Assembly (NCBI GenBank): GCA_951812955.1
Contig: OX638340.1
Location: 2,528,001 to 2,592,000 of the forward strand
Direction of reading: 5' to 3'
Length of the DNA: 64,000 nt
Source of the DNA: an uncultured Gemmatimonadota bacterium
GTDB lineage: Bacteria > JAAXHH01
In this document: positions 5,869-23,055 of the stretch, piece by piece
Layout of the letters: every line of letters begins with the position of its first letter
How positions within the stretch are numbered: the stretch's first letter is position 1
Made by a program: the position numbers and the translations under genes
The notes under the pieces: model-generated
What the model was told of the DNA's origin: nothing
The model's database searches: none
The model's input: the letters and a program-made list of their open reading frames with translations, nothing else

Positions 5869-5921
5869 TGCTCCAATTTATGTCGTCGTTCTCTCATTCC
5901 ATGTAATTGCCAACCCATTTC

Positions 5922-6039
5922 TTCCGGTGGCGATAGCGGAGGGGAAACACCTCTTCCCATTCCGAACAGAGTAGTTAAGCCCTCTTGCGCCGATGGTACT
6001 GCTTGGGTGACCTTGTGGGAGAGTAGGACGCTGCCGGGG
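5922..6039 (+). rRNA. rrf: 5S ribosomal RNA
   Basis: ...CCCATTCCGAACAGAGTAGTTAAGC...GCCGATGGTACTG...GGGAGAGTAGGACGCTGCCGG, with terminal helix pairing. Ends are approximate. Confidence 0.85.
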
Positions 6040-6050
6040 GATGCATTGAA

Positions 6051-6084
6051 GGCGCTCGATTCATTTCGAGCGCCTTTTTTGTTT
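6051..6084 (+). terminator. rho-independent terminator of the rRNA operon
   Basis: GGCGCTCGA (6051-6059), 6-nt loop, TCGAGCGCC (6066-6074), followed by TTTTTTGTTT. Confidence 0.7.
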
Positions 6085-6147
6085 GGGGCTAATGAAAGCT
6101 TTAGATCGCTAGCGTAGTCTGGTTGTCTGGCCAGGTCCGGTCGTCGT

Positions 6148-6822
6148 TTACGCGGCGGTGTTTACAATGCGTCCGTCGAAGAGGCGGATGATCCGGTGGG
6201 CGTGATCGGCCAGAACCTGGTCGTGGGTCACCATGATGATGGTCGTGCCCGCCTCGTTGAGGCCGTTTAGCAGTTCCATGACCTCCGAGCCGTTGGCAGA
6301 ATCCAGGTTACCCGTCGGCTCATCCGCCAGGATCAGCTTGGGATTGCCGATGACCGCCCGCGCCACGGCTACGCGCTGTTGCTGGCCGCCGGAAAGCTGC
6401 TGCGGGAAGTGATTACGCCGGTGGGGGATCTGCATGTGGTCCATCGCCGCATCCACCCGTTCCTTGCGCTCCTGCTTGGACGTGCCCAGGTAGATCAGCG
6501 GAAGCTCGATGTTCTCGTAGACGGTCAGTTCGTCGATCAGGTTGAAGCTCTGGAACACGAAGCCGATGTTGTTCTTGCGCAGATTGGCTCTTTGCCGCTC
6601 GGAGTGGCCGGACACTTCCTGGTCCAGGAAATGGTATTCCCCGCCCGTAGGGTTGTCGAGAAGGCCGAGGATGTTGAGCAAGGTGGACTTGCCGCAACCC
6701 GACGGCCCCATGACCGCCACGAACTCGCCCTGGTCCACGGCCATGCTCACGTCGTTCAACGCCGTCGTCTCCACCTCTTCGGTCGCATAGAGTTTCTGCA
6801 AGTTGCTGGTCGCTATCATCAC
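6148..6822 (-). CDS. ABC transporter ATP-binding protein (MacB/LolD-like), cassette A
   Basis: Walker A GPSGCGKST, signature LSGGQQQRVAVARA, and Walker B LILADEPTGNLD. 224 aa. Confidence 0.9.
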   Translation of the reverse strand: MMIATSNLQKLYATEEVETTALNDVSMAVDQGEFVAVMGPSGCGKSTLLNILGLLDNPTGGEYHFLDQEVSGHSERQRANLRKNNIGFVFQSFNLIDELTVYENIELPLIYLGTSKQERKERVDAAMDHMQIPHRRNHFPQQLSGGQQQRVAVARAVIGNPKLILADEPTGNLDSANGSEVMELLNGLNEAGTTIIMVTHDQVLADHAHRIIRLFDGRIVNTAA

Positions 6823-7014
6823 ACACCCCTTTTGCAGTTTATCGGTATGCGTCGCACCTTAATCATTCGACTTGTGTGCGATGCGCATTGTTTCGTCGCG
6901 ATGTTGTGCATGCTTGTAAATGCTCTGCTTCACTAAGTGTTCGAGTGAGGGCGAAGGCGATTCGTGGAAGGCGGTGCTCCAGGATCAACGCTCTCAATAC
7001 TGAAGTGAAGAAGT

Positions 7015-7521
7015 TCAATCCGTACTATCCGGCAAATTCACTCCAAATTCCTTGATAAACCGCTCAAAGAAACCGGCCGACCTGTATTCCAACAGCACGT
7101 TTACAGGTTCTCCATCCATGCCCGATATGCCGAGCGGCTTTTCTCCCAAGAAAAATTCCAACCCAAGACTATCCACTTCCGGGTAACCGGATGACCGAAT
7201 AATCCACGCCGTGTCGACGACACCAGTTGCGTTCGAATGGACTCGAAGCAATACTTCTCCTTCGTTGATGAACTCGGGCGGAAGCGCTACGGTTAATGGC
7301 ATTAATGGTATTTCCCCATTTGAGCTCTCATCCTTGGAACGGAGAGTGTCTGATTGTCCTGTGCTATCCTGTTCCAGGTCGGTCATCGTCGTATCTATTA
7401 CAGTTTCGCCTTCCCGGTTCACATCGTCCTTTCCTTCACATGCCGTGTGACTCAGGATGAGGAAAAGCGACACCAGCGCGCATAGACTGATCACAGTCTT
7501 TTTTACCATTTGTTGAGTCAT
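7015..7521 (-). CDS. putative lipoprotein with a TonB_C-like C-terminal domain, cassette A
   Basis: Start chosen at MTQQMVKKTV because GGAGGA lies 9 nt upstream. Signal plus Cys (LILSHTAC). The C-terminus GEVLLRVHSNATGVVDTAWIIRSSGYPEVDSLGLEFF resembles the TonB C-terminal fold pattern. The listed ORF extends to 7632. Confidence 0.55.
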   Translation of the reverse strand: MTQQMVKKTVISLCALVSLFLILSHTACEGKDDVNREGETVIDTTMTDLEQDSTGQSDTLRSKDESSNGEIPLMPLTVALPPEFINEGEVLLRVHSNATGVVDTAWIIRSSGYPEVDSLGLEFFLGEKPLGISGMDGEPVNVLLEYRSAGFFERFIKEFGVNLPDSTD

Positions 7522-7651
7522 CGACCTTGATCCTCCAGATTGCGACGTTTCCAGTCTATCGGTGGAATACCGGTTGTCCCGCTCAGAATCCATGGTCTTC
7601 GACGTATTTGGCATCAGACCGTAGCCCGGCACCGGCCGGCGTCTATATCGT

Positions 7652-8540
7652 CTACCGGCCCGTCACTTCGATTCGATTCCGGATGCCACGCGTGTAAGTC
7701 AGATGCCCGCGTCGGTCAATCCAGATCCCTTCGACGTGAGGCAAATCATCCAGTAACCGCTTTGAATTCTCGACTCCCATGACGTACGTCGCAGTCGCCA
7801 GGGCGTCCGCCGTCATGGCGTCCGGGGCGATGACCGTGGCGCTGAGCACGTGGTTCGATGAAACCCCCAGCCGTGGATTGAGAATGTGAGCGATACGAGG
7901 GCCCTGGTGCAGTCTATAGTTCTCATAGTCTCCTGCCTTCGCAATGGCCTCGTCTTCGAGTTCGACCATGGCGCATAGTGCATCCATCCGAGCGGTATGG
8001 TGAACGTATCCCGATGCGCCACAGGCGAGTAAGCTCGAGCCATCACAGGGCAAAGATGTCTCCTCCGGCCGAAACCAGGCCACATCGGACCCGGTGGTCC
8101 CGCAACGCCCCGACCGCCCGATCCACCATCTTGCCGATCTCCCTGATCCCGCCATCGGCTTCGAGGGCGACGAGCAATCGAACGTTGTTGCACACGGGAC
8201 AACGAAGATCCTCCTGTACCTCGTAAACGTACCCTACAGGATCGCCCTGTTCACCGAAAATCACGTAGCGGTCATATTCCCGAAAGTCCTCGTGCTTCCG
8301 GGATTCGGCCATGTGGAACGTAACCGAAACAAACTCCGAAACTGTCGGTTCATCGAGCGGTGGAAACAGGTTGGACATGCCGGCTAGCTCGTTTGACATC
8401 CTGTAAAGCGACGGGTCGGATCCGACTACATCGGTTCCGCCGGATCCCATGAGATAGATGAGATTCACGGCCACGACTACGGTGCCTGCTCCGGCGATCA
8501 ACACCACCGCCATTCGACTACGTTTCAAAAACTGCGCCAT
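7652..8540 (-). pseudogene. deletion-fused remnant: N-terminal part of the FMN_bind membrane protein joined to the C-terminal part of the ApbE flavin transferase, with an in-frame TGA and a frameshift
   Basis: Aligned by eye to intact cassette B genes. Residues 1-~131 match the FMN_bind protein up to ...CPVCNNVRLLVALEADGGI. It then switches to ApbE-like GKMVDRAVGALRDHRVRCGLVSAGGDIFAL. A TGA at 8043-8045 aligns with a Gly codon. The same frame continues WLELTRLWRIGIRSPY. A +1 shift near 7980 leads into LCAMVELEDEAIAKAGDYENY...ADALATATYVMG (ORF 7652..8155). Confidence 0.8.
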
Positions 8541-8582
8541 AGGTAAGTCACCCGAATGGACGTCTGAAGAACGTCGGAAACG

Positions 8583-11027
8583 CTACTCGTACCTCAACGC
8601 TTCAACAGGATTCGACCGCGCCGCTTTGAGGACGTGTAGGCCGACCGTGGAGGCCGCTACGGCAAGAATGGCCAGGCCCACCAGGACAAAGAGCGCCGGG
8701 TTGGGCGCAATGCGATAGGCGAAGTCACGCAGCCAACTTTCCATGACGAGGTAGGCGATCGGCCAGGCGATGACGCTCCCCGCAATGGCCATGATCACGA
8801 ACTCTTTCGACAGAAGCTGTACAAGTTGCGCCCTGGTCGCCCCCAAAATCTTGCGAACGCCGATTTCCTTCGTTCGCTGGTGCACGGTGAGGGAGACCAG
8901 GTTGAATAGCCCCAGGAAGGTCAGCACAATGGCAAGCAACGCGCATATTCCGAGGAGCGTGCCAAGGCGTTCTTCAGCCAAATACAGCTGGTCTATATCG
9001 TCTTCGAGAAAGGAATAGACGAGCGGGATTTCCGGGTAATGGGATCTCCAGACGCTATTGAGGTCCTCGAGCGCGGAGGCCGTACTCCCAGGTTGCAGTC
9101 GAACGCTCATGTGTTCGCCAAAGGAACTGCTTAAGAATACCATGGGCTCGACGGGCTGGTAAAGAGAACGAAAGTGGGTGTCTTGAATCACGCCGACGGC
9201 TCTGCCGCGCTGGACGTACTGCGGTAAGACGATTTCGATCGTCTTGTCCAGGGCCACTTCAGCGGAACTCCATCCCAGATGCCGGACGGCCGTTTCATTC
9301 AGGACTACCTCGAATACGGCGAACGGATTGAACATCCTCATATCTCTTGGCTTCAGATTCGAGCCCAGCACCAGGCTTATGTCCAGGGTCTCGAAAAAGT
9401 CGTGCTCCACGTTCACTATGCGGATAGACGAGGATACCGGCATATCGCTGTCGTCCCCGCGTCGAACCATGGTTTCCCCGATCATGCCCCTCCCCGGCGC
9501 GAGCCCGGGAACGTAATCCGACAGGGAGACGCCCTCGATGTACGGTGACCGCAGCAACTCGTTCTGGAATCCATCGGAGGATCTAGGATTAAACTGTTGG
9601 GAGCCTTCAGAAGAGCTTGATTCAATGGCCTCCACGAAGAATCCCGATATGAGGGGAACGACTATCACATTGGATTTTTCGAAGCCCGGAGGTTCGTTCA
9701 TCATGAACCGCAACTGGCTGTAGACCACACCCGTGCCGATGATCAGGATGGCGGAAAGGGCGAACTGGACCGTGATAAGAATACGCTTCACAAAGGGATA
9801 GTCGATCGCCTGGCTCAACCGGCGGCTAAGTGCGTCCATCGGCCGGTATCCAGACAGAACCATGGCCGGAAAACTCCCCGAGAATGCCCCCACGAGGACT
9901 GAAATGGCGATCAGACCAAGCCATATGTCGAGGTGTTGTATAAAACCCATGGACAGTGCCTTCCCAGTCACGGCGTTGAAGGCTGGAAGCGAAAGCCGGG
10001 CAAGCAGAACCGCCAGGACGAGTACCAGGCCTGAGATCATTACGGACCCGCTCAGATACTGCACGACAATACGTGAACGGTTCGCGCCGTACACTTTCAT
10101 TAGGCCCACTTCCTTCGCGCGGGCTGTCGACTGAACCATAGACAGATTGATGAAGTTGATGCAGGCGATCAGCAGCAGGAAAACGGCCCCCGTCATGAGG
10201 GTGTAGAGATAGGCCACACTGCTGTTCGCCTCGAGTTCGTTGAGTAGATTGGAACGCAGGTGAATCGCGGTCAGCGGTTGAAGGGAAAACCGGTAGTCCC
10301 GGATGCTCTCCCGGTTCACGGGCTTGATCTCGGTGTCGAAGTAAGCCTGGAACTTGGACGTCAGTTCCGGCACCAGGCTCTGATCGTGCAAACGCAGGTA
10401 CGTATAGTAGGTTGCGCTCCACCAGTTGTCCATGAACTGCAATTCCGTTCCGAAAGACAGGAACATGTCCGCGGTGAAATGCGTATGGCCCGGGAAGTCC
10501 TCCATGACGCCCGTGATGGTAAAGCTGTACGTGTTGTCCAGGCGCATCACCTCGCCCATGGGGTCCACTTCGCCGAAGTACTTCCTTGCCATCGATTCCG
10601 AGATGACCGCTTTGTTCTGCCCCTCCAATGCGGTGGCGGGATTCCCCTTGAGCAGGGGGATGGTGAAAACGTCGAATAGCGAAGGCTCGGTCCAGTAGAC
10701 CCGGTCTTCGTAGAACTCCCGGTCACCGAACCGTATAAGCCAAATGGCCCGAGTCGCCCGCATGCGGACAGCGCTTGCTACTTCCGGAAAGTTCTGTTTC
10801 AGCGTGGAAGCCGCTGCGCCCGGCGTGCGCGCGTTGTTGCCATTGATCAGCCGATAGACCTGCGGAGCGTACCTGTGGTGTGTATCGTAGGTCCATTCGT
10901 CCTTTATGTACAATAGCGTGAGTACGCACGCGGCCATGGCGATGGCCAGCCCCGTGACGTTGATGGTCGTATGGGATCTTTGCTTGAGCAGGGCTCTGAC
11001 GGCTATTCTGAGGTGGTGGGTGAACAT
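8583..11027 (-). CDS. MacB/FtsX-type ABC transporter permease (double FtsX module with large periplasmic domains), cassette A
   Basis: ~815 aa and roughly 57% identical (hand count over the first 100 aligned residues) to ORF 14447..16864. The C-terminal ...NPVEALRYE and TM/periplasmic-domain/3-TM pattern occur twice. Start set at MFTHHL (11027; GGGAG upstream; aligns with the paralog N-terminus). The ORF also opens at 11057. Confidence 0.85.
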   Translation of the reverse strand: MFTHHLRIAVRALLKQRSHTTINVTGLAIAMAACVLTLLYIKDEWTYDTHHRYAPQVYRLINGNNARTPGAAASTLKQNFPEVASAVRMRATRAIWLIRFGDREFYEDRVYWTEPSLFDVFTIPLLKGNPATALEGQNKAVISESMARKYFGEVDPMGEVMRLDNTYSFTITGVMEDFPGHTHFTADMFLSFGTELQFMDNWWSATYYTYLRLHDQSLVPELTSKFQAYFDTEIKPVNRESIRDYRFSLQPLTAIHLRSNLLNELEANSSVAYLYTLMTGAVFLLLIACINFINLSMVQSTARAKEVGLMKVYGANRSRIVVQYLSGSVMISGLVLVLAVLLARLSLPAFNAVTGKALSMGFIQHLDIWLGLIAISVLVGAFSGSFPAMVLSGYRPMDALSRRLSQAIDYPFVKRILITVQFALSAILIIGTGVVYSQLRFMMNEPPGFEKSNVIVVPLISGFFVEAIESSSSEGSQQFNPRSSDGFQNELLRSPYIEGVSLSDYVPGLAPGRGMIGETMVRRGDDSDMPVSSSIRIVNVEHDFFETLDISLVLGSNLKPRDMRMFNPFAVFEVVLNETAVRHLGWSSAEVALDKTIEIVLPQYVQRGRAVGVIQDTHFRSLYQPVEPMVFLSSSFGEHMSVRLQPGSTASALEDLNSVWRSHYPEIPLVYSFLEDDIDQLYLAEERLGTLLGICALLAIVLTFLGLFNLVSLTVHQRTKEIGVRKILGATRAQLVQLLSKEFVIMAIAGSVIAWPIAYLVMESWLRDFAYRIAPNPALFVLVGLAILAVAASTVGLHVLKAARSNPVEALRYE

Positions 11028-11040
11028 GATCGGGTGCTCC

Positions 11041-13503
11041 CTACGGTTCCAGGACAAGAAAGTTGACCGACTTGAAGACGCGCTGATCAGCGTGCCGGTC
11101 CGTCAGCGTCACGGTCAGCACATACTCCCCGGCTTCGAGATCCGTGGTGTCCATCGCGGTGTATTCAGCCTCTTCCGCTGAACTCCCCTCGCCTTCGAAG
11201 AAGGACATCACAGTCTGCATGTCGTCCGGCCTTCTGGCCCTGCGGTTCCTCAGTGCGGGCATGCCCAGGGGCGTGATTTCGTAAAGTGTCTCGTAGGAAG
11301 TGCGTCCGGCGTTGCCTAAATCCAGGTTGTACAATTCGTAGTAAACGTAAACGGGGTTTCCCCGAATGTAGAGCCGTCCCGGATTGGGCGTGATATTCAA
11401 CCCCTTGCGCACAAAGGGGCCCTGTACGCCTGACGGCGTGATGAGGGTGGCCAGCTTGAGATCGCTGATGAGCAGGTCGCGGCCGCGGTAGTCGGACAGC
11501 GTGACTGGCTTGCGATACACTCCGACCCGGCTCGTTGTCTCGTCCCGCACCTGGACTGCCAGCGTGAAACTACCCGACGGCGCGACAACGCTTTCAGGCA
11601 GGGTATACACCGGAACTTTCACGTTGCTTTCAGCCATCATACGCTTCGGCCTGTCGAAGGGACCGAAACCGAACTCGTGGGTGAACTGGGGGCTCATGGT
11701 CGAATCACGCAGGGTGACCAGGTGCGCGAGCCGGGTGCTGTTACCCCTGCCGTCCGAGACATCGCCGAACTGCCACACGGGGATGCTGTAGGACAGGTCC
11801 AGTTCCGTCGCGCCGTTGTCAGCCCTGTAGCTTACGGCGTCGAAGGCATATTCGAGTGGTTCTCCCCCGAAGTCGTGCAGGAATTCCTCGGGACTGCGCT
11901 TGATCAGGTTCTCGGCAACTCGTTGAGGATGATGGGTATCGTTTCGACGCATCAACTCGAAACCCGTGATGTCACCAAACGAATCCCCACCTTCATAGAT
12001 TGTCTGAAGTGGATAATCGAATTTCCCACCGCCCATCTGGTCCACGAAAAACAGTTCAAGATTATGCTGTACGTAAACCCAGCTTTCGACCTTGTACGAT
12101 TCTCCGACCAGACGTTTGAGTAACTCGAATGGATTGCTCTCCGACGAGCTCCCCCAGAGATCCACCGATCCCAAATCGAATCCCTGGAGCTGCATGATCT
12201 CCTCATCCAACAACGCCACCGGATCTCCCCTGCCCACCCGCAACACGTAGCCGGACTGCATATTCCGCACGCGTATTGCGTCCACGGCAGGAATCGCCGA
12301 CGGCTTGAAAACGGAAAAGGTGTTCCCATGCCTGCGCAGCAAGAAGTTGCTACGGTCATCCGGCGTACCGTATCGAACGTGAATCTCCCCGCGGCGGTCA
12401 AAGGGATACTGGCCCTCTGAGAAATGATTGCGGGCGTACAGTACGCGCCGGTAGTGTTCCACCAGGCGCTCGTTTTCGACGGTGGCCGGATTGGAATCCC
12501 GTGCGTTCCAGAAGGTCTGCCACAGCGCGTCGCGTTCCGGTCCTTCCACAGCCTCCCAGGTCTTCAATTCATCGGGAGGCGCGACATGTCGCAGGTCCCG
12601 GTACACCGCCTGCTCATCGGGATCGAGACCCGATATATAGGTCTCCAGGGCTTCCTGCAATCGATCGAACCCCCGTTCAGTCGAACCCGAAAGCATGCTG
12701 AACTGAAGCTGCAGGGTCCTGACCTCGTCCGCGACGGCATCTCCTGATTCTTCGACCAACTGTCCCAGGAGTTCAGCACCTATTTCGAACGCTTCGGCAC
12801 GAAGACACACATTGGTAAACCGCTCGAAGGCCCGACGGTGTTTGGGGTTTACCCGGTACTGGTTGAAATAGGCGGCTATCGCTTTTTCGTAGTCCGGCAA
12901 CGGGGGACTTTCATAACATCGTCCCAGTTGATAGTAGGCGTCCTCATGGGATGGATTCAGCTCTACGACCTTGAGGAAATACGTCCTGCCATCCCGGTCG
13001 CTGCCCACGATGGTATCTACTTTTTTATCATTCATGAAGGACATGCCCAGGTAGTACTGGGCGTCCGCGTTGTCCGGATCCAGGCGGATCGCGGTACGCA
13101 ACGCGTTGCGGGCATCCAGCTTTCTGTTTTGCAACTTCAGGTAGGTCTTCCCCAATCCGATGTGACCAGGCGCCCATTTTTTGTCCTGCCGCACTGCGCT
13201 CCTGAACGAACTCAACGCCTCACGGTAGTCGCCCAATTCATACCGCGCCATTCCGAGCCAGTAGTGGGCGGGCGCCGAATCCCCGTCAGCCTTGACGGCC
13301 ATTAGGAAGTACGGCAGCGCTTCCGCGTATCGTCCCTGTTGGTAAAGTGATTTGCCTTTTTCGTGGGCTGGCAGATCAATATCGGATACGGCCGATTGCG
13401 GCGGGGAAGTCCAGGTCTGGGAATGGCCGGGTAAACTCAGTGCAAGCGCGGCGATTGTAAGAAGCAGGCGGACGTACACGTAGTGCCTCTTTGGACGAAT
13501 CAA
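11041..13503 (-). CDS. secreted TPR-repeat protein with a GWxTD-like domain
   Basis: Signal peptide, multiple TPR-like repeats (AxxYxxLGxxY patterns), then ...LWQTFWNARDSNPATVENERLVEHYRRVLYARNHF...FDRRGEIHVRYGTPDD. This resembles the GWxTD domain family, but the motif position reads YPFDRRG. Confidence 0.55.
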   Translation of the reverse strand: MIRPKRHYVYVRLLLTIAALALSLPGHSQTWTSPPQSAVSDIDLPAHEKGKSLYQQGRYAEALPYFLMAVKADGDSAPAHYWLGMARYELGDYREALSSFRSAVRQDKKWAPGHIGLGKTYLKLQNRKLDARNALRTAIRLDPDNADAQYYLGMSFMNDKKVDTIVGSDRDGRTYFLKVVELNPSHEDAYYQLGRCYESPPLPDYEKAIAAYFNQYRVNPKHRRAFERFTNVCLRAEAFEIGAELLGQLVEESGDAVADEVRTLQLQFSMLSGSTERGFDRLQEALETYISGLDPDEQAVYRDLRHVAPPDELKTWEAVEGPERDALWQTFWNARDSNPATVENERLVEHYRRVLYARNHFSEGQYPFDRRGEIHVRYGTPDDRSNFLLRRHGNTFSVFKPSAIPAVDAIRVRNMQSGYVLRVGRGDPVALLDEEIMQLQGFDLGSVDLWGSSSESNPFELLKRLVGESYKVESWVYVQHNLELFFVDQMGGGKFDYPLQTIYEGGDSFGDITGFELMRRNDTHHPQRVAENLIKRSPEEFLHDFGGEPLEYAFDAVSYRADNGATELDLSYSIPVWQFGDVSDGRGNSTRLAHLVTLRDSTMSPQFTHEFGFGPFDRPKRMMAESNVKVPVYTLPESVVAPSGSFTLAVQVRDETTSRVGVYRKPVTLSDYRGRDLLISDLKLATLITPSGVQGPFVRKGLNITPNPGRLYIRGNPVYVYYELYNLDLGNAGRTSYETLYEITPLGMPALRNRRARRPDDMQTVMSFFEGEGSSAEEAEYTAMDTTDLEAGEYVLTVTLTDRHADQRVFKSVNFLVLEP

Positions 13504-13625
13504 GAAGTGGCATTGACGATTCGCGTTACCGAATCAAGGGGAGTTGCTTTCAAGGTATCCAATAGACCAGGAATCAACAACCGTCTATGCGACGCAGTTC
13601 CACAAGGTATCCCCATAGGTCGCGC

Positions 13626-14297
13626 TTACGCGGCCTCCGTCACGATCCGTCCGTCGAAGAGCCTGATGGTCCGGTGGGCGTGGTCGGCCAGCGCCTGGTC
13701 GTGGGTCACCATGATGATGGTCGTGCCCGCCTCGTTGAGGCCGTTGAGCAGTTCCATCACCTCGGCGCCGTTGGCCGAGTCCAGGTTACCCGTCGGCTCG
13801 TCCGCCAGGATCAGCCTGGGGTTGCCGATGACCGCCCGCGCCACGGCCACGCGCTGCTGCTGGCCGCCGGATAGCTGCTGCGGGAAGTGGTTCCGGCGGT
13901 GGGGGATCTGCATGTGCTCCATCGCCGCGTCCACCCGTTCCTTGCGCTCCTGCTTCGACGTGCCCAGGTAGATCAGCGGCAGTTCGATGTTCTCGTACAC
14001 GGTCAGCTCATCGATCAGGTTGAAGCTCTGGAAGACGAAGCCTATGTTGGCCTTGCGCAGGTTGGCGCGCTGCCGCTCGGAGTGGCCGGACACTTCCTGG
14101 TCCAGGAAATGGTACTCCCCGCCCGATGGATTGTCGAGGAGACCGAGGATGTTGAGCAGGGTGGACTTGCCGCAGCCCGAGGGTCCCATGACCGCCACGA
14201 ACTCGCCTTCGTCCACGGCCATGGTCACATCGTTCAGCGCCGTCGTCTCTACCTCTTCGGTCGCGTAGAGTTTCTTGAGATGTTCTGTCCTGATCAT
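13626..14297 (-). CDS. ABC transporter ATP-binding protein (MacB/LolD-like), cassette B
   Basis: ~92% amino-acid identity (about 18 differences counted by eye over 223 aa) to ORF 6148..6822, with the same Walker and signature motifs. Start set at MIRTEHLKKLY (14297) by alignment. The listed ORF extends to 14450. Confidence 0.9.
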   Translation of the reverse strand: MIRTEHLKKLYATEEVETTALNDVTMAVDEGEFVAVMGPSGCGKSTLLNILGLLDNPSGGEYHFLDQEVSGHSERQRANLRKANIGFVFQSFNLIDELTVYENIELPLIYLGTSKQERKERVDAAMEHMQIPHRRNHFPQQLSGGQQQRVAVARAVIGNPRLILADEPTGNLDSANGAEVMELLNGLNEAGTTIIMVTHDQALADHAHRTIRLFDGRIVTEAA

Positions 14298-14446
14298 GGT
14301 GCGCTCCCGTAGTGTGGTAATACTCCGTATCCACGCATGCCATTTCGGAATCGTTCCTAATATCAAAGTAGCAAATGAAGAGGGTTGCAATTCCAGGTCG
14401 GAGAGATTAACTCCATAGATTGTGCGACTACGTTCATGCTGGAGAA

Positions 14447-16864
14447 TCACTCATACCTGAGCGCATCTACCGGGTTCAACGGTGCTTCTTTTGTAACATG
14501 GAAGGCAATCGTAGCGATGATTACTAACAGAATCCCCATGCTTACCAAGATGTAGAGGCTAAGGGGTGGAGAAACTCGATATGCGAAATCTTGTAACCAA
14601 ACGGCAGTAACCAAGTACGCCAACGGCCACGCTACCAGATTGGCGATCGCTGCCATAACTACAAACTGTCTAGACAGCAACTGAGTCAATTTCATAACTG
14701 TAGCACCCAGGGTCTTGCGTATGCCTAATTCCTTCGTTCTCTGTTTTGTGGTCAGGGAGACCAGGTTGAAAAGTCCCAGGAATGTCAAGATAGTAGCTAA
14801 GATGGTACAGACACCTATAAGCGAACCTAGACGTTTCTCCGGTACGTAAAGTCGATCAATATCGTCCTCCAAGAGGGAATAGATAAATGGAATTTCAGGA
14901 AAATAAGACTGCCAGGTAAGATCTAGGTAACTTAACGCAGATTCCATTTTCCCATCCTGAAAGCGCACCATCATGTGTTCGCCATTACCGTTCGTGAAAA
15001 CCATCGGTTCAACAGGCTGATAAGACGACCGGAAGTGGGCATCCGCAACGACACCTACAACCCTGCCTCGTTGGGTGATCTGAGGGTATACGATATCTAT
15101 CGTCTGGTCTACTGCTGACACTGGAGAAGTCCAACCTAGGTGGCGTACTGCCGTTTCGTTGAGAACAAGCTCGATTACGGGCAAAGGCCCAAAAGTCGAA
15201 TATGTAGCAAGACTCCTGTGCCTCAAAAAGCGTCCGTGTACCAGCTGTAAACCCAGTGTGTTTATGTAATCGTGCTCAACGCCCACAAATCGTACGGATC
15301 TGGAATTCCTCAGACTGTTTCCTGCCCGAGTTCGAACCATCCCATCACCCATTGTACCACGGGCAGGTTCAAGTGCCGGCACATAAGTTGAGAATGAAAC
15401 GCTGAGTACATCTGGCGATCTCAACATATCGTTTTTGAATCCGCTAGGTGGAACTAGTATTCCGCCTGGGAAGAAGCCTGTTATCAGGGGTACATTGACT
15501 ACATTTGATTCGTCAAAACCCTGGGGTTTGGTCAACATGTATTGAATCTGGATGTAGACCACGCAGGTGCTGATAATCAGAATAGTGGAGAGAGAAAACT
15601 GGATGATGATGAGCATCCGTTTCACCAGTGGAAAGTCCACTGAATGGCTGATTCTGTTTCCAAGAGAAAAGAGAGGGTGTACTCCTGACATAACCAAAGC
15701 CGGAAATCCTCCTGAAACGACTCCAACGATTATCGCAACGACAACTATCCCAAGCCAGATTCCAAAGTCTTCAGTAACGCCAAAAGAAAGCGTTTTACCT
15801 GTCAGCCAATTAAATGATGGCAGTGCAAGATAGGTCAAAATGAGAGCTAAAAACAAAACCAACATCACCATGGTTAAGGATGCAATCATATGCTGCCTGA
15901 TAATCTGAATTCGATCAGCACCGAAAATCTTAATCAAACCCACTTCCTTCATCTGATCAGCCGAATGAACCATAGACAGATTGACAAAATTGATTGAAGC
16001 GATGAGCAACAAGAAGATCGCACCTGAAATGAGCGCAAAGATGTAACTCACACTGCTATTCACCTCGAGTTCATTCAAAAGGCGGGAACGAAGGTGAATC
16101 TCCGTTAGTGGTTGAAGTATGAAACTATACTCCCGGATCCACGCGCTGTTGCTAGGTTTTACCGTTGATTCAAAATACCGCTGAAACTTGTCTTCGAGAA
16201 TTGAAGCCTGGTTACCTTCGTTCAACCGGACGTAGGTGTAATAGTCGGGACGCGACCAGTTGTCAATGTAGGATAGTTCATTGCCGAAACTCAGGAAGAA
16301 CCCAGCCTCGAAATGGGAGTTGACCGGGAAATCCTCCATTATCGCGGTAACGGTAAAATCCCATGTGTTGTCGGCTTGCAACACCTTACCGATGGGATCT
16401 TCCTCGCCAAAGTACTTTCTGGCGACTGACTCTGATATAACGACCTTGCCTATGCCATCCAACGCGTTGGTTTTGTTCCCCTTTACAAGTGGTATGGTAA
16501 AGACATCAAACAAGGAGGCTTCGGTCCAGTATACCTTATCTTCGTAAAAAGCACGATCACCGTACTGCATTAGCCAGATGGCCCTGGCCGCCCTTAAACG
16601 AACAGTACTTACAACTTCAGGAAAGTTCAGCTCAAGGGAACCTGAGGCGGCACCTGGAGTTCGGGCATTGGTGCCGTCAATCAATCGGAAGATCTCGTTG
16701 GCGTGTTCGTGGTGAGAATCGTATTTCAGTTCTTCCTGGATATACATCAGGGTTAAAATACACATAGCCATCCCGACAGTTATTCCGCTGATGTTTAATA
16801 TGGTATTGGATTTCTGCTTTAATAGTGCACGGGTGGAGATTTTCAGGTGGTGGGGTAGTTCCAT
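14447..16864 (-). CDS. MacB/FtsX-type ABC transporter permease, cassette B (low-GC)
   Basis: 805 aa, paralog of 8583..11027, with the same double FtsX architecture and C-terminal NPVDALRYE. Confidence 0.85.
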   Translation of the reverse strand: MELPHHLKISTRALLKQKSNTILNISGITVGMAMCILTLMYIQEELKYDSHHEHANEIFRLIDGTNARTPGAASGSLELNFPEVVSTVRLRAARAIWLMQYGDRAFYEDKVYWTEASLFDVFTIPLVKGNKTNALDGIGKVVISESVARKYFGEEDPIGKVLQADNTWDFTVTAIMEDFPVNSHFEAGFFLSFGNELSYIDNWSRPDYYTYVRLNEGNQASILEDKFQRYFESTVKPSNSAWIREYSFILQPLTEIHLRSRLLNELEVNSSVSYIFALISGAIFLLLIASINFVNLSMVHSADQMKEVGLIKIFGADRIQIIRQHMIASLTMVMLVLFLALILTYLALPSFNWLTGKTLSFGVTEDFGIWLGIVVVAIIVGVVSGGFPALVMSGVHPLFSLGNRISHSVDFPLVKRMLIIIQFSLSTILIISTCVVYIQIQYMLTKPQGFDESNVVNVPLITGFFPGGILVPPSGFKNDMLRSPDVLSVSFSTYVPALEPARGTMGDGMVRTRAGNSLRNSRSVRFVGVEHDYINTLGLQLVHGRFLRHRSLATYSTFGPLPVIELVLNETAVRHLGWTSPVSAVDQTIDIVYPQITQRGRVVGVVADAHFRSSYQPVEPMVFTNGNGEHMMVRFQDGKMESALSYLDLTWQSYFPEIPFIYSLLEDDIDRLYVPEKRLGSLIGVCTILATILTFLGLFNLVSLTTKQRTKELGIRKTLGATVMKLTQLLSRQFVVMAAIANLVAWPLAYLVTAVWLQDFAYRVSPPLSLYILVSMGILLVIIATIAFHVTKEAPLNPVDALRYE

Positions 16865-17284
16865 AACTGGCCTACAGATACTTAGTAAATGGTTCTAAGA
16901 GGGTTGTGATTAACGTCGAAGGGGCAGTTGAAAGTCTATAACTGCCTGTACGTTTAAACTCGTCCTCCGGTTTGATCAGCCCCAGACGTTCGCCGAGTGT
17001 TTTGGACTCGTCCACCACTGGCATTCAGCGAGGAGAGCATTTCCGTTGTCGGTGCGTGGAGCGTCGTTTGTTTTTTAACCTTGATGAATTCAATACCCAG
17101 ACGAAGTCGGTCAATCAACTCTTCCAACTGCTTGATTTGAATAGGCTAATAGAGGAAGTCACGGCGAAGGCTTCACTGGCAATATCGCGACTTTGATTCA
17201 GGTAGTTAATGTTGTCGTACGCATCTTAGTCTCCATGTGCGCTGTCAGGTTGGGTCTGTGACGGATTTTGTGTTACTGACTTTA

Positions 17285-17500
17285 TCATGTTAAGGGCACT
17301 TTGTCTTCGTACATGATGATGAACTTGCTGGTGGCGGCCGTCCAGTTGGCGATGGGCCGTGTCTACCTTCGGGCCAGGTAGAGCAGTTTCCTGGCTACCC
17401 CGTCGGTGGGGAAGGCGCCGCCGCGCTATGGTCACCCCCAGTCTGCATGAGCACGTTCACCGCCCGTTACAATTCTGCTTCACATTGCATGGCGGCCAGC
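17285..17500 (-). mobile_element. decayed C-terminal relic of an IS256 (Mutator)-family transposase
   Basis: My own reverse-strand translation gives ...IVTGGERAHADWG*P*RGGAFPTDGVARKLLYLARR*TRPIANWTAATSKFIIMYEDKVPLT**. The block FP(T/S/N)D..A.KLLYLA...NW..A...F.I.F.D is the conserved C-terminal signature of IS256-family transposases. Several in-frame stops are present and no N-terminal part was found. Confidence 0.6.
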
Positions 17501-17707
17501 AATAGACTGGCAAAAGACGGTCAAAGGACAGGCGTAAACTTGTCGCTCTGAGTGCTATCCTTTACATAAACCTCTTCGACTCAGTCGTCTTCCACGGCTT
17601 CTTTATTCAGTCGACGTTTTCATCAAGCCCTTTAGATCCTCGTCGGTCTGTCTTGAAGCTACCGTGTATTTAACACCGCTCCCTTGTCATGAAGTACGAC
17701 CCACTCG

Positions 17708-18709
17708 TTAATTGACAATCTGCAATCTATTCTGGATCCCTCTTGTAAAAATAAACTGTCCATGCTGATCAATCCAGATCCCCTCGACGTATGGCATATC
17801 GTTCAGCAATCTCTGAGAACTTTCGATACCCATAACATAAGTCGCTGTGGCAAGCGCATCCGCTATCATTGCGTCGGGAGCGATAATCGTGGCGCTATGC
17901 ACGTGATCCGTCGAAGTCCCAAGTCGAGGATTGAGTATGTGTGTAATACGGCGACCTTGATTGATTTTGTAGTTTTCATAACCACCCGACGTCGCAACCG
18001 CCTCATCTTCGATTTCGACTGTGGCGCACAATGTATTGGGATGGTATGGAGACCGGATACCAATACGCCAAAGACGTTCAGGTTCTGGCCTTCCCATGGC
18101 AAGAACATCCCCACCTGCAGATATCAACCCGCATCTAATGTGGCGGTTTCGTAATACGTGAGCCATTCGATCCAATCCGTAACCTTTTGCTATTCCGCCA
18201 AAGTCTACCCCATAACCAGACGAAGCAATTCGTACTTTCTGTTCTTGCACTTGCAACTGATTAAAGTCTACCAGTTCGAGCATTTGCCGTAAGCTTCGAC
18301 TTGACGGATCACAATTATAAAATCCCCAGTGGTACATAATCGGTAGAATTGTCACATCGAAGGCACCATCTGTAATCTCGCCGATTCGTCTTGCTGTAGT
18401 CGCGACCTTGATAAAGTGGGGTGTTACGCCATGCCAAAGCCCATACATGTTGTTTACATGCGTAAGTTCACTGGTATTACGATAGAGGCTTAGCAGGCTG
18501 TCAATTTGAGCTAAAGCATCGAAGGCATCATAAATTGATTCTTTACTGTACTCGCATTCCTTGATTACAAGTTCTACTTTCGTCCCCATATGAATCTGAT
18601 GACGACGAACAAGCCTTTGCTTGTCTGACAATCCTGCGCCAAAATTGTATGGCACAAGTAACATTGCCGATGAAAGGCCGACCGATTTTATGAAATTGCG
18701 TCGCTTCAT
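17708..18709 (-). CDS. apbE: FAD:protein FMN transferase (ApbE family) with a Tat-type signal
   Basis: The N-terminus MKRRNFIKSVGLSS is twin-arginine-like. Also ...DFGGIAKGYGLDRMA...ISAGGDVLAMG...WRIGIRSP...ATSGGYENY...HILNPRLG...PDAMIADALATA, the typical ApbE motif series. Confidence 0.85.
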   Translation of the reverse strand: MKRRNFIKSVGLSSAMLLVPYNFGAGLSDKQRLVRRHQIHMGTKVELVIKECEYSKESIYDAFDALAQIDSLLSLYRNTSELTHVNNMYGLWHGVTPHFIKVATTARRIGEITDGAFDVTILPIMYHWGFYNCDPSSRSLRQMLELVDFNQLQVQEQKVRIASSGYGVDFGGIAKGYGLDRMAHVLRNRHIRCGLISAGGDVLAMGRPEPERLWRIGIRSPYHPNTLCATVEIEDEAVATSGGYENYKINQGRRITHILNPRLGTSTDHVHSATIIAPDAMIADALATATYVMGIESSQRLLNDMPYVEGIWIDQHGQFIFTRGIQNRLQIVN

Positions 18710-18778
18710 AGGGGCTATGCTATGATGGAATCTAGGACCATCTTTGTTTTCAAAAACAAGGCTACGTACAGAAAGCCC

Positions 18779-19378
18779 CTAACCTCGATGGATATGCCTA
18801 AGTCTATTGAGAGCATCAACAATATGAATCGAGCTTTTGGTAGCACCTGTGATTCCGTCGATATTTTCGCCTAATACGTAGAAATGTAGGTTCGGTTTCG
18901 ACTTAAATTGCCTCAGAAACCTCGTTTCATCCTCAACAGATAGTGGTTCACCGGAGAGTTCAAGGGGTTCAAGCACTCTGATATCATGGAGCCGACCCAA
19001 GTCATCGAGTGCGACGAGCATTCGGACGTTATTGCAAACAGGACATTTGAGATCCTCCTGTATTTCGTAGACGTAGCCAACAGTGTCGATTCGTTCGTCA
19101 AACACCACATATCGATCGTAACCTCTGAATTTCTCGTGTTTGCTAGAATAGCTTTCAGAGAAAGCGGATATAGTGAATTCCCTTAAGATACGATCGTCAA
19201 GTGGTGGGAATATGTCGGATGAAGTAATCGAACCACTTCCCGATCCCAAGTTCGACACGTGTGAGTAAATCACATCGTCATCACATGAATGTCCGGATAA
19301 GTAGACTATATTGACCACAGCAATTACTACTCCGGTTATAAGAAACATGGTTCTTTGAATGAGTTTGAAATTTCGCAT
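18779..19378 (-). CDS. membrane-anchored FMN_bind-domain protein with a predicted flavinylation site
   Basis: Start set at MRNFKLIQ (19378) by alignment with the cassette A homolog. One N-terminal TM helix. GYVYEIQEDLKCPVCNNVRMLVALD core. DGITGAT at 18839-18859 matches the Dxx(S/T)GA(T/S) ApbE acceptor motif known from NqrC/RnfG. Confidence 0.7.
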   Translation of the reverse strand: MRNFKLIQRTMFLITGVVIAVVNIVYLSGHSCDDDVIYSHVSNLGSGSGSITSSDIFPPLDDRILREFTISAFSESYSSKHEKFRGYDRYVVFDERIDTVGYVYEIQEDLKCPVCNNVRMLVALDDLGRLHDIRVLEPLELSGEPLSVEDETRFLRQFKSKPNLHFYVLGENIDGITGATKSSIHIVDALNRLRHIHRG

Positions 19379-19515
19379 ACTACAACCGAACTCCATCTTC
19401 GTTTGAGCAGAAGAGGCCGAAGTTTGACTGGTTGTTCCTTGGGAGCCACGACATAGATTTGGGATTTCACTGACTGAACAGAATGTTGAGTTGAGGGGAG
19501 GCCGAGCCAATACAC

Positions 19516-19932
19516 TTATCTAAGGCGGAAGCTCATTGGAAAGTAGAATTGCGCAGATATAGGCTTTCCTTCCTTAGTCGCTGGCTTGAAAATCATCATT
19601 CGTGCTTGCGACAGTGCAAGACTATCTAGTTCTGGATGGGTCGACGATTCTATGATCGAAACAGATTCCACCGTGCCATCTGCCTTAGATCTTAAGAGAA
19701 GTACAACATCGCCTTCATTGCTGTACTTATCCTGTGGCGTGGGTCTAAACAATAGTCGTGGAGACGTATCCCAATCACCCACTTTAGCTATAACTTCAGT
19801 GTCAACTTGGGTTTCTTCCACCGGCACACTATCGTTCTCTACATTTCTGTCGTTACTGCAGGAGATGACTAACGAAAAGAGTACAATCTGGGACAGGCTG
19901 AATCGAAGCATTTGTGGAGCCCTTTCTGTCAT
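19516..19932 (-). CDS. lipoprotein with a TonB_C-like domain, cassette B
   Basis: Lipobox LVISC. The C-terminus GDVVLLLRSKADGTVESVSIIESSTHPELDSLALSQARMMIFKPATKEGKPI fits the TonB C-terminal pattern. Confidence 0.6.
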   Translation of the reverse strand: MTERAPQMLRFSLSQIVLFSLVISCSNDRNVENDSVPVEETQVDTEVIAKVGDWDTSPRLLFRPTPQDKYSNEGDVVLLLRSKADGTVESVSIIESSTHPELDSLALSQARMMIFKPATKEGKPISAQFYFPMSFRLR

Positions 19933-20022
19933 ATGAGGTCGATTTCTGAACGCGAGGTAAATTCTGATTCATGTTCTAACTTTCAATGTGATTCAAAATC
20001 ACCAGTATAAGTTAAAACCTGA

Positions 20023-21735
20023 TCAATCGGGGCTATTGACCCGAGAAGTAAATCGAAAATTGTATTTAAATATCGTATTTTGGGGGACGATGAGTCGTGT
20101 TCCCATAGTGGGCATTAAACGAAACCTGCCTACAGACTCTAAGGCGATACTATCCAGTGCCGGATGTGCTGATGGTGTCTTTGTCCAAATCGAATCTACG
20201 ATACCATTTGAGTCGAAAAGTACGTTCACTGCAATTTCCATTTCGTCAAGATGACCGTACTCAAGAGGGAATGCACGACTCGTAGCCGTACCGAGGTGCA
20301 AGATTAGAGGTTCTTCATACGATGGCACAACATAGTCGTCAATGATCCCGTCGGTCACTAGTCGAATGTATTGGTCATATCCTTCCAAGGATCGCCAGGA
20401 ATCATCTTTTGTGAATCTGGCGATACTCTGTGCAAAAGATGTAAAAGGGAGGTCACCGATACGGCGAGGATGGGACATCATGTTGACGGATTGATTGTTG
20501 GCGTACGATCTGATAAAAAGACTCGATTCATCTATCGGCATGGAAGACACGTTATCGAAGTATCGTGTGAAAGTTGACCGGTCCGACCCGTTGGAATCAT
20601 GGGCTTCGGTGGACGGCATGTTAGTGAAGTATTGAGAGATATCAAATCGGTCTGACCCGCTGGATGCCTGCACTTCGCGATAGGTAGTTGTAGTCAGATA
20701 GTACTCCACATTTGAAACGTAGAATACGGAAATGGTCGCATCATGAGACCGGACGTAGTCTGATATACCACGCAAGGCTGTTTCACCGGCGAAATCACCT
20801 ACGACTGGAACGATCAAGTTCCTCCCGTGCAACTTCTTGACGACGTCAAATGCACTATCATCAGCAAGGAAGTTGGCTTGCTCCCCACTTATCGTTTCTG
20901 CAAGAATCAACTCCCGCAGACTCGGGAAATTAAAGGTTGCATCCCCCGGTGTTCCCAGATCGTACTGGATGTCTAACTGGCTCCTGAAGAAAGCCTGATA
21001 GACTCGTTCGACAGCTTTCATATCTTCCATCGAGTCTATGCCATACGAATGTAAATGGGACTTGATGACCCGGAGATTTCGCTCGTAGAGTTTTACATCG
21101 GGATCTATTCCGTCGAAATATGCGATCAGCGTTGCAACAGATGATTCACTTCGAGACCAGGGCCGGACCGGTCCTCCCTTAAATATCTCGGCCAGGTAGG
21201 AGAGATTCCGGTTCAATGGTTTGCTGAGCAGCCTAGACAGGAATTCAGCACTGTCGCTGGACTGAGCGAAGAGGGACTTGTAGATCAGGTGCAACAGCAT
21301 GTTATCGCGACGAATGTCAACCACGAAAGCCATGTGCGGCCTGGTCTCGGCGATGTAGGTAAAATTCTGTTCGGGGCCGACACCCACATAAACGCCACCG
21401 GAAACGTGCCGTTCGCGTAGTACGGCAAATGGATGCAGGTAAGAAGATTCGTTTGAGGTGAAATTGGTTGAATGAAAGGAGCCACCCGTCTCCGACAGTT
21501 CTCTAATCAGGTTCGAGAAGGCTGGCGTGGACAGTGAGTCCGGGAGGGCACCTGCTCTTGGATATGGCTTTACAGTCCTCTTGTTAGACCAATCAGAAGG
21601 ATTGTAACACTGGACTGCAAACAACATCACGACAACACCTGCCGTTATCCATGTTGTTGTTTTCCATATAACCATATCCGAGGATTTCCAAGCAGCTAAA
21701 GATTGACCTAAGTATTGTGAAAGTCTCTCAGCCAC
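20023..21735 (-). CDS. N-terminally anchored protein: unrecognised ~400-aa central domain plus a TonB_C-like C-terminus
   Basis: One TM helix (WITAGVVVMLFAV). The central region with GVGPEQNFTYIAETRPHMAFVVDIRRDN...HLIYKSLF could not be assigned to a named family. The C-terminus IAVNVLFDSNGIVDSIWTKTPSAHPALDSIALESVGRFRLMP is TonB_C-like. Confidence 0.5.
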   Translation of the reverse strand: MAERLSQYLGQSLAAWKSSDMVIWKTTTWITAGVVVMLFAVQCYNPSDWSNKRTVKPYPRAGALPDSLSTPAFSNLIRELSETGGSFHSTNFTSNESSYLHPFAVLRERHVSGGVYVGVGPEQNFTYIAETRPHMAFVVDIRRDNMLLHLIYKSLFAQSSDSAEFLSRLLSKPLNRNLSYLAEIFKGGPVRPWSRSESSVATLIAYFDGIDPDVKLYERNLRVIKSHLHSYGIDSMEDMKAVERVYQAFFRSQLDIQYDLGTPGDATFNFPSLRELILAETISGEQANFLADDSAFDVVKKLHGRNLIVPVVGDFAGETALRGISDYVRSHDATISVFYVSNVEYYLTTTTYREVQASSGSDRFDISQYFTNMPSTEAHDSNGSDRSTFTRYFDNVSSMPIDESSLFIRSYANNQSVNMMSHPRRIGDLPFTSFAQSIARFTKDDSWRSLEGYDQYIRLVTDGIIDDYVVPSYEEPLILHLGTATSRAFPLEYGHLDEMEIAVNVLFDSNGIVDSIWTKTPSAHPALDSIALESVGRFRLMPTMGTRLIVPQNTIFKYNFRFTSRVNSPD

Positions 21736-21771
21736 TTCTTTTGACTAAGAGACTCTCACGCCGGATCAGCC

Positions 21772-23055
21772 CTAACAACTTCTACCACCATTACAGTAAC
21801 AACCTACATAGCCCCACACATATGCATCCCCACAGTCATCATAATAACTACAATATACGCGATGGGCCAGGACCGCATAGGCAAAGGAGAAGGGCAACGC
21901 GCACTGCAACCCCACGTGGACGATTCGATCGAGCATCCAGACTATCACGGGTAGGGCTGGACCGGATGCCGGAACCAGACCCCAAGAGGACAGGAGCGTG
22001 CCGGGTTTCGTGATTGTCCACATCGGCGCGAGGATGAGGGCCAGGATGAATCCGGCCTCGATAATCTGGAGGCGTATGCGCTGTTGCTGGCTCGCCACGA
22101 AACGCTGGGCAATCAGTAGGCATCCTGTTAAGATAACAACGAGGAGAGGAAACATTGGAACGGGAATGGGCTCAACTATGCGGACGACGAACTGCGCAAT
22201 CTCATTATTCCAACCATGGGTGATGCTCAGTAAGTAGATCGAATGTAAGACTATCCACACAAAGAGAGGCGTCAGGATGAACAATGCTTTTTTTCGTAAC
22301 CATTCTCCAAAGACAGACGAACTTGGAAAAACAGTTAATATCTGAAAGATAAGAACAGTTTCCAGGATTGTTGCTAATACGACGATGTATATACTGAGCG
22401 ATAGTAACCAAACCGGCCATCCTGCGATCATGGGATGAAAGGCAGGAGACGATGTGAGCGCCGTAGCGAGGAAGAGCAACGCGCATCGAAAGGCGATGAC
22501 GTTTAGATGACTGCGGAATCCCATCCAAGTACCAAAACCTAACAGCACGATCGGGAAGATCAGAAAGGGTCCTCTTTGGAACCAGGTCATCTCCGCGACA
22601 CCCATCACAATCTCCTGCTGATCAACCTGTAGGGTGTAAGGTACCTCTTCGATCTCCTCAAGTGTCATGATACCGGTATGTATCCGATCTTCGCGAAGCC
22701 AGACGATTTCGATACGTTCTCCGGGTTGACTTTGCAAACGTGCCTGGAAATAGGCTTCTGGTCGTGATCTCAGGTCGATTCCATTTACCGATATGATCCG
22801 GTCGCCCGACTGTATTCCTGCCAGGTCGGCCGGACTTCCGTTCTCGATCTGTACTGCGATGATACCTTCGTCTTGGCGAATCCGGACGAGATGAAACCAC
22901 GTACCTTCCTGTAGATTGCTAACGGCGCTCTTCGTCAACCCCGGCGTTTGTATCATCTCGCTACCAAAAAATTGAATGCCGGGCGACCAGTGTTCGATCT
23001 GCGTGAATCGAACAAGTGTCCACGCCACCAGACCCAATTGCATGCATAGCAGCAA
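21772..23055 (-). CDS. PDZ-domain polytopic membrane protein with a Cys/Tyr/Gly-rich tail
   Basis: PDZ-like segment GIIAVQIENGSPADLAGIQSGDRIISVNGIDL, followed by ~8 hydrophobic helices. The tail is YCSYYDDCGDAYVWGYVGCYCNGGRSC. The TTG start is uncertain, because the frame is open 17 codons further upstream with no canonical start. Confidence 0.6.
   Translation of the reverse strand: MLLCMQLGLVAWTLVRFTQIEHWSPGIQFFGSEMIQTPGLTKSAVSNLQEGTWFHLVRIRQDEGIIAVQIENGSPADLAGIQSGDRIISVNGIDLRSRPEAYFQARLQSQPGERIEIVWLREDRIHTGIMTLEEIEEVPYTLQVDQQEIVMGVAEMTWFQRGPFLIFPIVLLGFGTWMGFRSHLNVIAFRCALLFLATALTSSPAFHPMIAGWPVWLLSLSIYIVVLATILETVLIFQILTVFPSSSVFGEWLRKKALFILTPLFVWIVLHSIYLLSITHGWNNEIAQFVVRIVEPIPVPMFPLLVVILTGCLLIAQRFVASQQQRIRLQIIEAGFILALILAPMWTITKPGTLLSSWGLVPASGPALPVIVWMLDRIVHVGLQCALPFSFAYAVLAHRVYCSYYDDCGDAYVWGYVGCYCNGGRSC

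Follow-up and report, generated by a model that had tools for sequence, protein, structure and literature searches.

Two near-identical ABC transporter ATPases beside divergent permeases are probably copies of one ATPase type reused by marine Gemmatimonadota-like bacteria

The stretch of DNA analysed here (the window, 64,000 nucleotides) carries, beside an rRNA operon, two ABC transporter cassettes, A and B, each with a separate ATPase gene and a long permease gene. All genes from 6148 to 23055 lie on the minus strand. The features of this region are as follows, L numbers designating sequences from relatives:

890-6039, plus strand: rRNA operon (16S, tRNA-Ile, tRNA-Ala, 23S, 5S; Rfam and ARAGORN), which bounds the variable region
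6148-6819, minus strand: ATPase A, an intact MacB/LolD-class ABC nucleotide-binding protein, rRNA-adjacent, with a type II leader
6820-6913, minus strand: type II leader upstream of ATPase A, a remnant of an MFP-ATPase spacer
7015-7632, minus strand: TonB-like ORF of 205 aa with a weak tonB_Cterm match, sitting where relatives have an MFP gene
7652-8540, minus strand: decayed FMN_bind and ApbE remnants of cassette A, ApbE being matched by its C-terminal part only
8583-11027, minus strand: permease P1, a fused double MacB_PCD and FtsX protein of subfamily S1 (Pfam)
11041-13503, minus strand: P2, a TPR and GWxTD domain protein
13626-14297, minus strand: ATPase B, intact, with a type I leader and N-terminus (PF00005, E = 3.6e-35)
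14298-14327, minus strand: type I leader and ribosome-binding region of ATPase B, kept in L001, L002, L005 and L085
14328-14446, minus strand: junction spacer between P3 and ATPase B, without homology to its counterpart in L083
14447-16864, minus strand: permease P3, a fused double MacB_PCD and FtsX protein of subfamily S2, low in GC (Pfam)
16953-17601, minus strand: frameshifted remnants of an HlyD/MFP gene (tblastn with seven MFPs)
17708-18709, minus strand: ApbE, low-GC cassette B accessory gene (Pfam)
18779-19510, minus strand: FMN_bind protein, low-GC cassette B accessory gene (Pfam)
19516-19932, minus strand: TonB_C protein, low-GC cassette B accessory gene (Pfam)
20023-21735, minus strand: DUF7790 protein, low-GC cassette B accessory gene (Pfam)
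21772-23055, minus strand: remnant of a PDZ-HisKA sensor kinase, with PDZ domains only

Both ATPases belong to PF00005 (124.7 bits for A and 122 for B against a cut-off of 25; E = 5e-36 for A) and carry GPSGCGKST, LSGGQQQR, LILADEPT and VTHD at the same positions; in ATPase A, for which the GTG at 6822 is an alternative start, the Walker A, Q-loop region, signature, Walker B and H-loop motifs are all in place. Aligning the two proteins revealed 208 identical residues among 223 (93.3%), close to the ~92% given in an earlier sequence-only reading of this DNA, with 15 differences where that reading had counted ~18. Its estimate of ~90% at the nucleotide level was borne out (88.9% over the full codon alignment; 90.3% by blastn over a 659-nt match, E = 0; 91.0% over codons 9-219), as was the high GC of both genes (GC3 0.84 in A and 0.90 in B). 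The genes constitute a direct repeat with a spacing of 7,478 nt and are identical over stretches of 52 and 44 nt.

The similarity is indeed confined to the coding sequence, setting in at about codon 8-9 and running on for a few bases beyond the stop codon; the 300-nt flanks, aligned together with the genes, are unrelated. The first ~7 residues, which had been described as unrelated, instead belong to a hypervariable N-terminus, the first eight codons, that exists in other species in two leader-linked versions: SNLQKLY and its leader are common to ATPase A, L082a and L082b, and MIRTEHLK with the other leader type is common to ATPase B, L001, L002, L083 and L085. The type II leader at 6820-6913 aligns with the spacers of L082b, L003 and L081, and its last ~25 nt also with those of L007 and L082a. 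A search around the ATPase genes for flanking repeats and for IS-like or integron-like features returned none, and promoter and terminator scans found sites no more numerous than in shuffled sequence. A strong 12-bp hairpin at 6048-6077, with T and A runs on both sides, separates the 5S rRNA gene from that of ATPase A, which is convergent with it; the hairpin is also kept in L082 and is likely a bidirectional terminator.

P1 and P3 each contain two stretches of PF12704 and of PF02687, which identifies them as MacB-type (type VII) permeases, and the MacB structure 5lil matches them weakly in sequence. They share 454 of 801 aligned residues (56.7%), in agreement with the ~57% first reported, and 61% of their DNA. 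Their difference in GC had been overstated at 15-20 points, since total GC differs by 10.4 (56.8 versus 46.4); at third codon positions the gap is 22 points (GC3 0.73 in P1 versus 0.51 in P3). The ORF between the cassettes (11041-13503) is by its domain matches no permease but the TPR/GWxTD protein P2, whose ortholog in L007 (78-80% aa, dS 0.81) also adjoins an rRNA operon. At 13186-18177 of L007, near that operon, lie two tandem TPR/GWxTD paralogs, 57% and 80% identical to P2 in protein; the window keeps one.

The kinship of the cassettes extends beyond ATPase and permease. The decayed FMN_bind and ApbE remnants of cassette A are paralogs of the intact cassette B genes at 17708-19510 (51-67% aa), which they match within 17717-19276, and are 60-73% identical in protein to intact genes of L002, where the counterpart of cassette A survives whole, in the order P1 (84% aa)-FMN_bind-ApbE-MFP-ATPase. 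By tblastx, the ORF at 7015-7632 (GC3 0.54) is likewise weakly similar to TonB_C of cassette B. Thus every element shared by the cassettes is an old paralog except the ATPase.

Cassette B bears further marks of decay. The tblastn pieces at 16953-17601 match MFPs at ~50% aa over residues ~105-158 and ~224-297, and this remnant is also present, with a deletion, in the Tara Oceans scaffold L083. At the position of the truncated kinase, L083 encodes an 888-aa PDZ-HisKA kinase and two LuxR-type response regulators; relative to it, the window is short of ~4.7 kb comprising the kinase core, the two response regulators and small ORFs. The 64-kb window holds no intact MFP gene and so does not by itself encode a tripartite, MFP-dependent pump, although the genome may have an MFP elsewhere. 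Neither ATPase is preceded by an MFP, one MFP surviving as frameshifted pieces and the other being replaced by the TonB-like ORF (6820-7632). The low-GC set DUF7790-TonB_C-FMN_bind-ApbE (GC3 0.43-0.51) travels with the P3-type permease both here (17708-21735) and in L083 (5591-9534), an association that hints at a link between a MacB-type transporter and a flavinylated extracytoplasmic protein.

A protein search with ATPase B returned at least 44 clusters at 90-97% identity, the named ones assigned to Gemmatimonadetes or Gemmatimonadota, and a next group at 80-84%. We compared 14 nucleotide copies from ~10 related genomes, namely A, B and twelve copies from a genome scan and contig look-ups. 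They form one shallow family (at least about 88% aa; dS 0.2-0.65). The number of ATPases per relative, a check asked for by the sequence-only reading, is two to three, each normally preceded by an MFP gene. The L001 and L007 ATPases lie on one contig, L082 has two copies (L082a and L082b) 4 kb apart, and the L002 and L081 ATPases, on contigs of the same length (3,542,715 bp), were taken as a within-genome pair; L003 has one copy and a 3' fragment. That fragment (L003 14351-14833), with 84-86% nucleotide identity to both A and B, is flanked by two permease genes close to an rRNA operon and is likely the scar of recombination between ATPase copies.

In every relative examined, an HlyD-type MFP gene of 444-478 aa stands directly upstream of the ATPase, and two outgroup loci, L089 and L090, show the same single locus type, MFP-ATPase-permease. 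The permeases that adjoin the ATPases fall into at least six subfamilies, with 24-59% aa identity between subfamilies and 82-91% between orthologs within one; L087 and L088 carry permeases with no ATPase within 10 kb. In a 286-aa protein from another metagenome (P0045), the ATPase sequence from about residue 20 onwards follows an MFP-like C-terminal stretch, whether as a genuine fusion or as an artefact of a frameshift or of assembly.

ATPase A is the resident, rRNA-adjacent copy: homology with L082 runs without a break along window positions 6913-691, through the leader, ATPase A, the spacer and the rRNA operon, with 16S and 23S identities of 100% and 99.8%. Beyond about -95 nt on the upstream side, the place of the relatives' MFP is taken by the TonB-like ORF and the decayed cassette. 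Within window positions 1-6147, the same L082 that is identical in 16S differs in the adjoining lipoyl synthase gene (85% DNA identity, dS 0.65), and L081 shows the reverse pattern (16S 99.0%; lipoyl synthase 92%, dS 0.29). This disagreement of neighbouring loci on relatedness suggests recombination among these species.

ATPase B is 97-98% identical in protein to those of L001 and L002, and cassette B is colinear with L083 at 82-87% nucleotide identity through DUF7790, TonB_C, FMN_bind, ApbE, the MFP remnant and P3. Over the accessory genes alone (17708-21735) the figure is 84-87%. The claim that ATPase B stands apart from the rest of its cassette was upheld, as it has core-genome composition within a low-GC cassette. 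L083 makes the same jump in composition (GC3 0.48 in P3, 0.90 in the ATPase). The spacer between P3 and ATPase B (14328-14446) aligned locally to that of L083 with a score below the shuffle mean, the two being alike only in their last 20-30 nt, and the genes downstream of ATPase B differ between window and L083. With non-homologous spacers on one side and different genes on the other, ATPase B and its short leader form a block separate from the cassette. Block and cassette have nevertheless long been together, since divergence between window and L083 is similar for all cassette genes: five other cassette B genes have dS of 0.20-0.49, and the ATPase, at 0.34, lies among them.

These results bear on one of two explanations first offered for the locus, in which a low-GC cassette was placed beside a resident ATPase. 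This idea fits better than gene conversion, with two qualifications: the arrangement is an old one, the juxtaposition of low and high GC being already present in L083, and the contrast between ATPases and permeases is family-wide. Nor is low GC proof of recent import: P3 has orthologs at 86% aa (L083) and 70% aa (L085 and L087), and the GC3 of P3-type permeases stays near 0.5 even at 70% aa, which makes low GC a lasting trait of the P3-type accessory genes.

We next compared synonymous divergence. ATPases A and B have a dS of 0.37-0.40 by NG86 and 0.86-0.93 by ML/YN00. For P1 and P3, NG86 is saturated and undefined, LWL85 gives 2.6 and ML gives 5.0. As a caveat, NG86 estimates carry a bias where GC3 differs (0.5 versus 0.9). 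The sequence-only reading would have been overturned by comparable dS in the two pairs, and the contrast it described survived this test. At residues identical between A and B, the same codon is used in a fraction of 0.79, against ~0.60 expected at saturation from the family's codon usage, and 147 of 211 third positions vary; synonymous sites are thus short of saturation. With unequal dS and a same-codon fraction above saturation, the contrast is not due to purifying selection alone, strong as that selection is on the ATPase (dN/dS ~0.07-0.12).

The ATPase dS is also that of the genomic background. In the same genomes, lipoyl synthase has dS of 0.29-0.65 and the MFP 0.21-0.81, to which the P1 (0.63) and P2 (0.81) orthologs and the five other cassette B genes (0.20-0.49) may be added, and pair by pair the ATPase and MFP values nearly coincide (0.20 versus 0.21 for L004-L006; 0.29 versus 0.30 for L001-L002). 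Since the ATPase matches ortholog divergence and tracks the MFP, the split of A from B dates to about the time of the species radiation. We rejected anomalously slow synonymous sites in the ATPase, as the adjoining MFP and other orthologs have similar dS. The separation of P1 from P3 is far older than that of A from B, and each permease has its own ortholog elsewhere (84% aa for P1, in L002, where dS is 0.63; 86% for P3). The proposal that the history of the ATPase pair is not that of the permease pair is thus sustained by the dS contrast and by these orthologs.

These values make it improbable that the two ATPases separated as long ago as the two permeases, their likeness preserved by purifying selection together with an extreme codon bias that caps synonymous divergence. 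Such a cap would suit the high GC3 of the ATPases (0.84-0.90), at which a same-codon fraction of 0.60 is already expected at saturation, as well as a star-like ATPase tree with high homoplasy and a family conserved across phyla (70-77% aa to Bacteroidota and Ignavibacteriota). The same-codon fractions seen, however, are 0.70-0.88, above the saturation value; ATPase dS follows that of neighbouring genes pair by pair; and identity to the closest ATPases from outside the clade drops to 80-84%.

The other original explanation, that ATPase B was overwritten by conversion from the cassette A copy, found no support, for want of exclusive sites, a significant tract or a pairing in trees. More broadly, if gene conversion in this genome had recently replaced one copy with the other, this would account for high identity confined to the coding region; the copies are also direct repeats 7,478 nt apart that contain long exact matches, and a GENECONV-type run test found a nominal shared run of 40 nt (16 polymorphic sites, nt 186-225; p = 0.04). 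That p value is, however, uncorrected among 66 pairs. The 69 differences between A and B are evenly spread along the gene, and among nine ATPase sequences A and B share no exclusive variants, against 14 for L004-L006 and 5 for L003-L007. ATPase A is nearest to L082a and L082b, with which it groups weakly in NJ trees, where B does not join it; B is nearer to L001, L002, L003 and L007 (dS 0.27-0.29) than to A, and the A/B dS of 0.37 is as large as that between species. The sharp borders are not conversion borders, because similarity ends at the start and stop codons in every pairwise comparison within the family. A mosaic analysis of ATPase A by type-diagnostic sites had too few sites to call tracts. 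We therefore consider recent conversion between A and B very unlikely.

A possible account, though one we hold to be distinctly less probable than the reading preferred below, is concerted evolution at the level of the clade. Here the ATPases, with or without their MFPs, would be old paralogs marked by their leaders, whose coding regions were repeatedly homogenised so that ~90% identity was kept. The two leader types are kept across species, yet the gene bodies beneath them are undifferentiated, with zero fixed differences; dS is 0.40-0.41 within leader types and 0.42 between them, so that bodies are sorted neither by locus nor by leader. Between 54 and 56% of informative site pairs are incompatible, and private substitutions are few. 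L082a and L082b, on one contig, cluster together (76-87% bootstrap) and share a 5' tract (p = 0.005), and L082b, from the rRNA locus, groups with L085, from a lactonase locus, in both the MFP and the ATPase trees. As to route, within-genome gene conversion or recombination with alleles of related species might tentatively be invoked, A and B having identical stretches of 52 and 44 nt, long enough for RecA-mediated recombination.

Several results argue against homogenisation. Pairs of different type within one genome (A-B, L001-L007 and L002-L081) have a mean dS of 0.38, no closer than the 0.42 between genomes; a PHI-type test on the ATPases was not significant (p = 0.19); and no ATPase pair survived correction for 66 tests. 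Nor is the pattern special to the ATPase, because homoplasy is as high in the adjoining MFP.

The MFP and ATPase trees are in agreement, cross-locus-type grouping included. With unsorted bodies and about half of the site pairs incompatible, simple duplication would need near-simultaneous speciation, failing which homogenisation or exchange must be invoked. The undifferentiated bodies under two leaders thus fit two histories, a duplication at the base of the clade or past homogenisation or exchange of the whole module. That recurrent conversion and recombination between species keep old leader-marked ATPase/MFP paralogs (two to three loci per genome) interchangeable across the clade seems to us a minority prospect, doubtful but worth stating. 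If it were true, the ATPase would act as a universal engine, ready to drive any of many fast-diversifying permease cassettes, and its genes would offer portable homology for inserting and excising them.

We prefer the reading, at a probability of roughly 0.6, that the contrast between A and B reflects modular reuse of one generic ATPase with many old, divergent permeases in marine Gemmatimonadota-like bacteria. Near-identical ATPases would then stand beside divergent permeases because the clade reuses one conserved ATPase type. The ATPase family is shallow, the permease subfamilies are deep, orthology is positional, remnants are decayed, and A and B show no signal of conversion. The contrast of 93% with 57% is accordingly a general property of this ATPase/permease family and is not peculiar to the pair.

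Under modular reuse, ATPases A and B would be two copies of a single generic NBD type that normally belongs to an MFP-ATPase module. The copies would owe their likeness to a recent common ancestor and strong purifying selection, the P1 and P3 subfamilies having separated long before. Rearrangement would have made the present pairings, with probable breakpoints at about -95 nt (A), about -30 nt (B) and just after the stop codons, and its footprints are the MFP remnant, the ApbE and FMN_bind remnants, the truncated sensor kinase and the 3' ATPase fragment of L003. ATPase B with its own leader would have joined the low-GC FMN_bind-ApbE-(MFP remnant)-P3 segment before the split from the lineage of the Tara scaffold, although the order of these events is a reconstruction. 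Gene neighbourhoods suggest that one ATPase type may functionally serve several permeases; in such a system two generic ATPase copies would presumably dock on one fused permease, and both strong constraint on the ATPase and permeases without a nearby ATPase would follow. Were A and B to recombine, the P2-P1 segment would be deleted or re-inserted, an event of which the L003 fragment may be a scar.

The system belongs to a known class of modular type VII ABC transporters, in which the ATPase is conserved and the permeases are diversified. The nearest solved relatives of the ATPase are 5xu1, MJ0796, LolD, MacB and YbbA (9ge6). Both ATPases score below the NCBIfam equivalog cut-offs for DarD (274-277 versus 375), LolD (217-219 versus 307.75), FtsE (222 versus 264.85) and YbbA (209-214 versus 336); they are of the same class as these proteins and within none of these equivalogs.

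MacAB-TolC and the pneumococcal type VII system Spr0693-0695 resemble the present one in ATPase class, in a permease with MacB_PCD and FtsX, and in the upstream MFP of the relatives. They differ from it in that here the ATPase is separate, the permease is a fused double one of ~800 aa, several permease subfamilies occur per ATPase type, and the window ATPases have no intact MFP gene. E. coli YbbA-YbbP also combines a separate ATPase with a permease of ~800 aa that has two FtsX units; scores against it are far below cut-off (YbbP E = 2e-4), however, and YbbAP is a single pair, not a one-to-many system. The darobactin exporter DarBCD has the same gene set (fused permease, MFP and ATPase), DarD being the best ATPase model and DarB among the permease matches, but scores are below the cut-offs (375 and 700) and there is no darA- or darE-like context here. 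ADOP (TIGR03434) is the top NCBIfam model for P1 and P3 and likewise comprises many double permeases, some without an adjacent ATPase; P1 (283.9) and P3 (206.8) nonetheless fall short of its cut-off of 622.3, and the host is Gemmatimonadota-like, not an acidobacterium.

Two further systems set the scale. LolCDE combines one ATPase type, LolD, with two divergent permease paralogs, LolC and LolE, and is a small-scale precedent for an NBD far more conserved than its membrane partners; unlike that one fixed complex, the present system has multiple ATPase copies and at least six permease subfamilies. In the concerted evolution of tufA/tufB and of rRNA operons, each genome's paralogs form a cluster of their own and are almost the same in sequence. 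These, too, are more similar than the age of their loci suggests, the likeness being limited to the gene; ATPases A and B, by contrast, diverge at ~10% of sites and do not group together. A literature search on duplicated orphan permeases turned up general MacB and FtsEX papers only.

A within-genome contrast of 93% with 57% therefore need not signal recent conversion, and may be a local view of a system with one ATPase and many permeases. Annotation could then not read the functional partner of these permeases from adjacency, and a seemingly orphan one could still be powered. The interval between the rRNA operon and EF-G is a site of turnover in which conserved ATPases form direct repeats around permease cassettes, and these repeats offer a testable route for the gain and loss of cassettes.

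Elsewhere in the window, an adjacent pair of OppD/OppF-type ABC ATPase genes (25803-27812) shares ~50% identity; these are ordinary paralogs, in contrast to the 93% of A and B. Short tandem amino-acid repeats of ~21-23 residues, 90-100% identical between copies, are encoded at 37828-37941 and 34061-34146.
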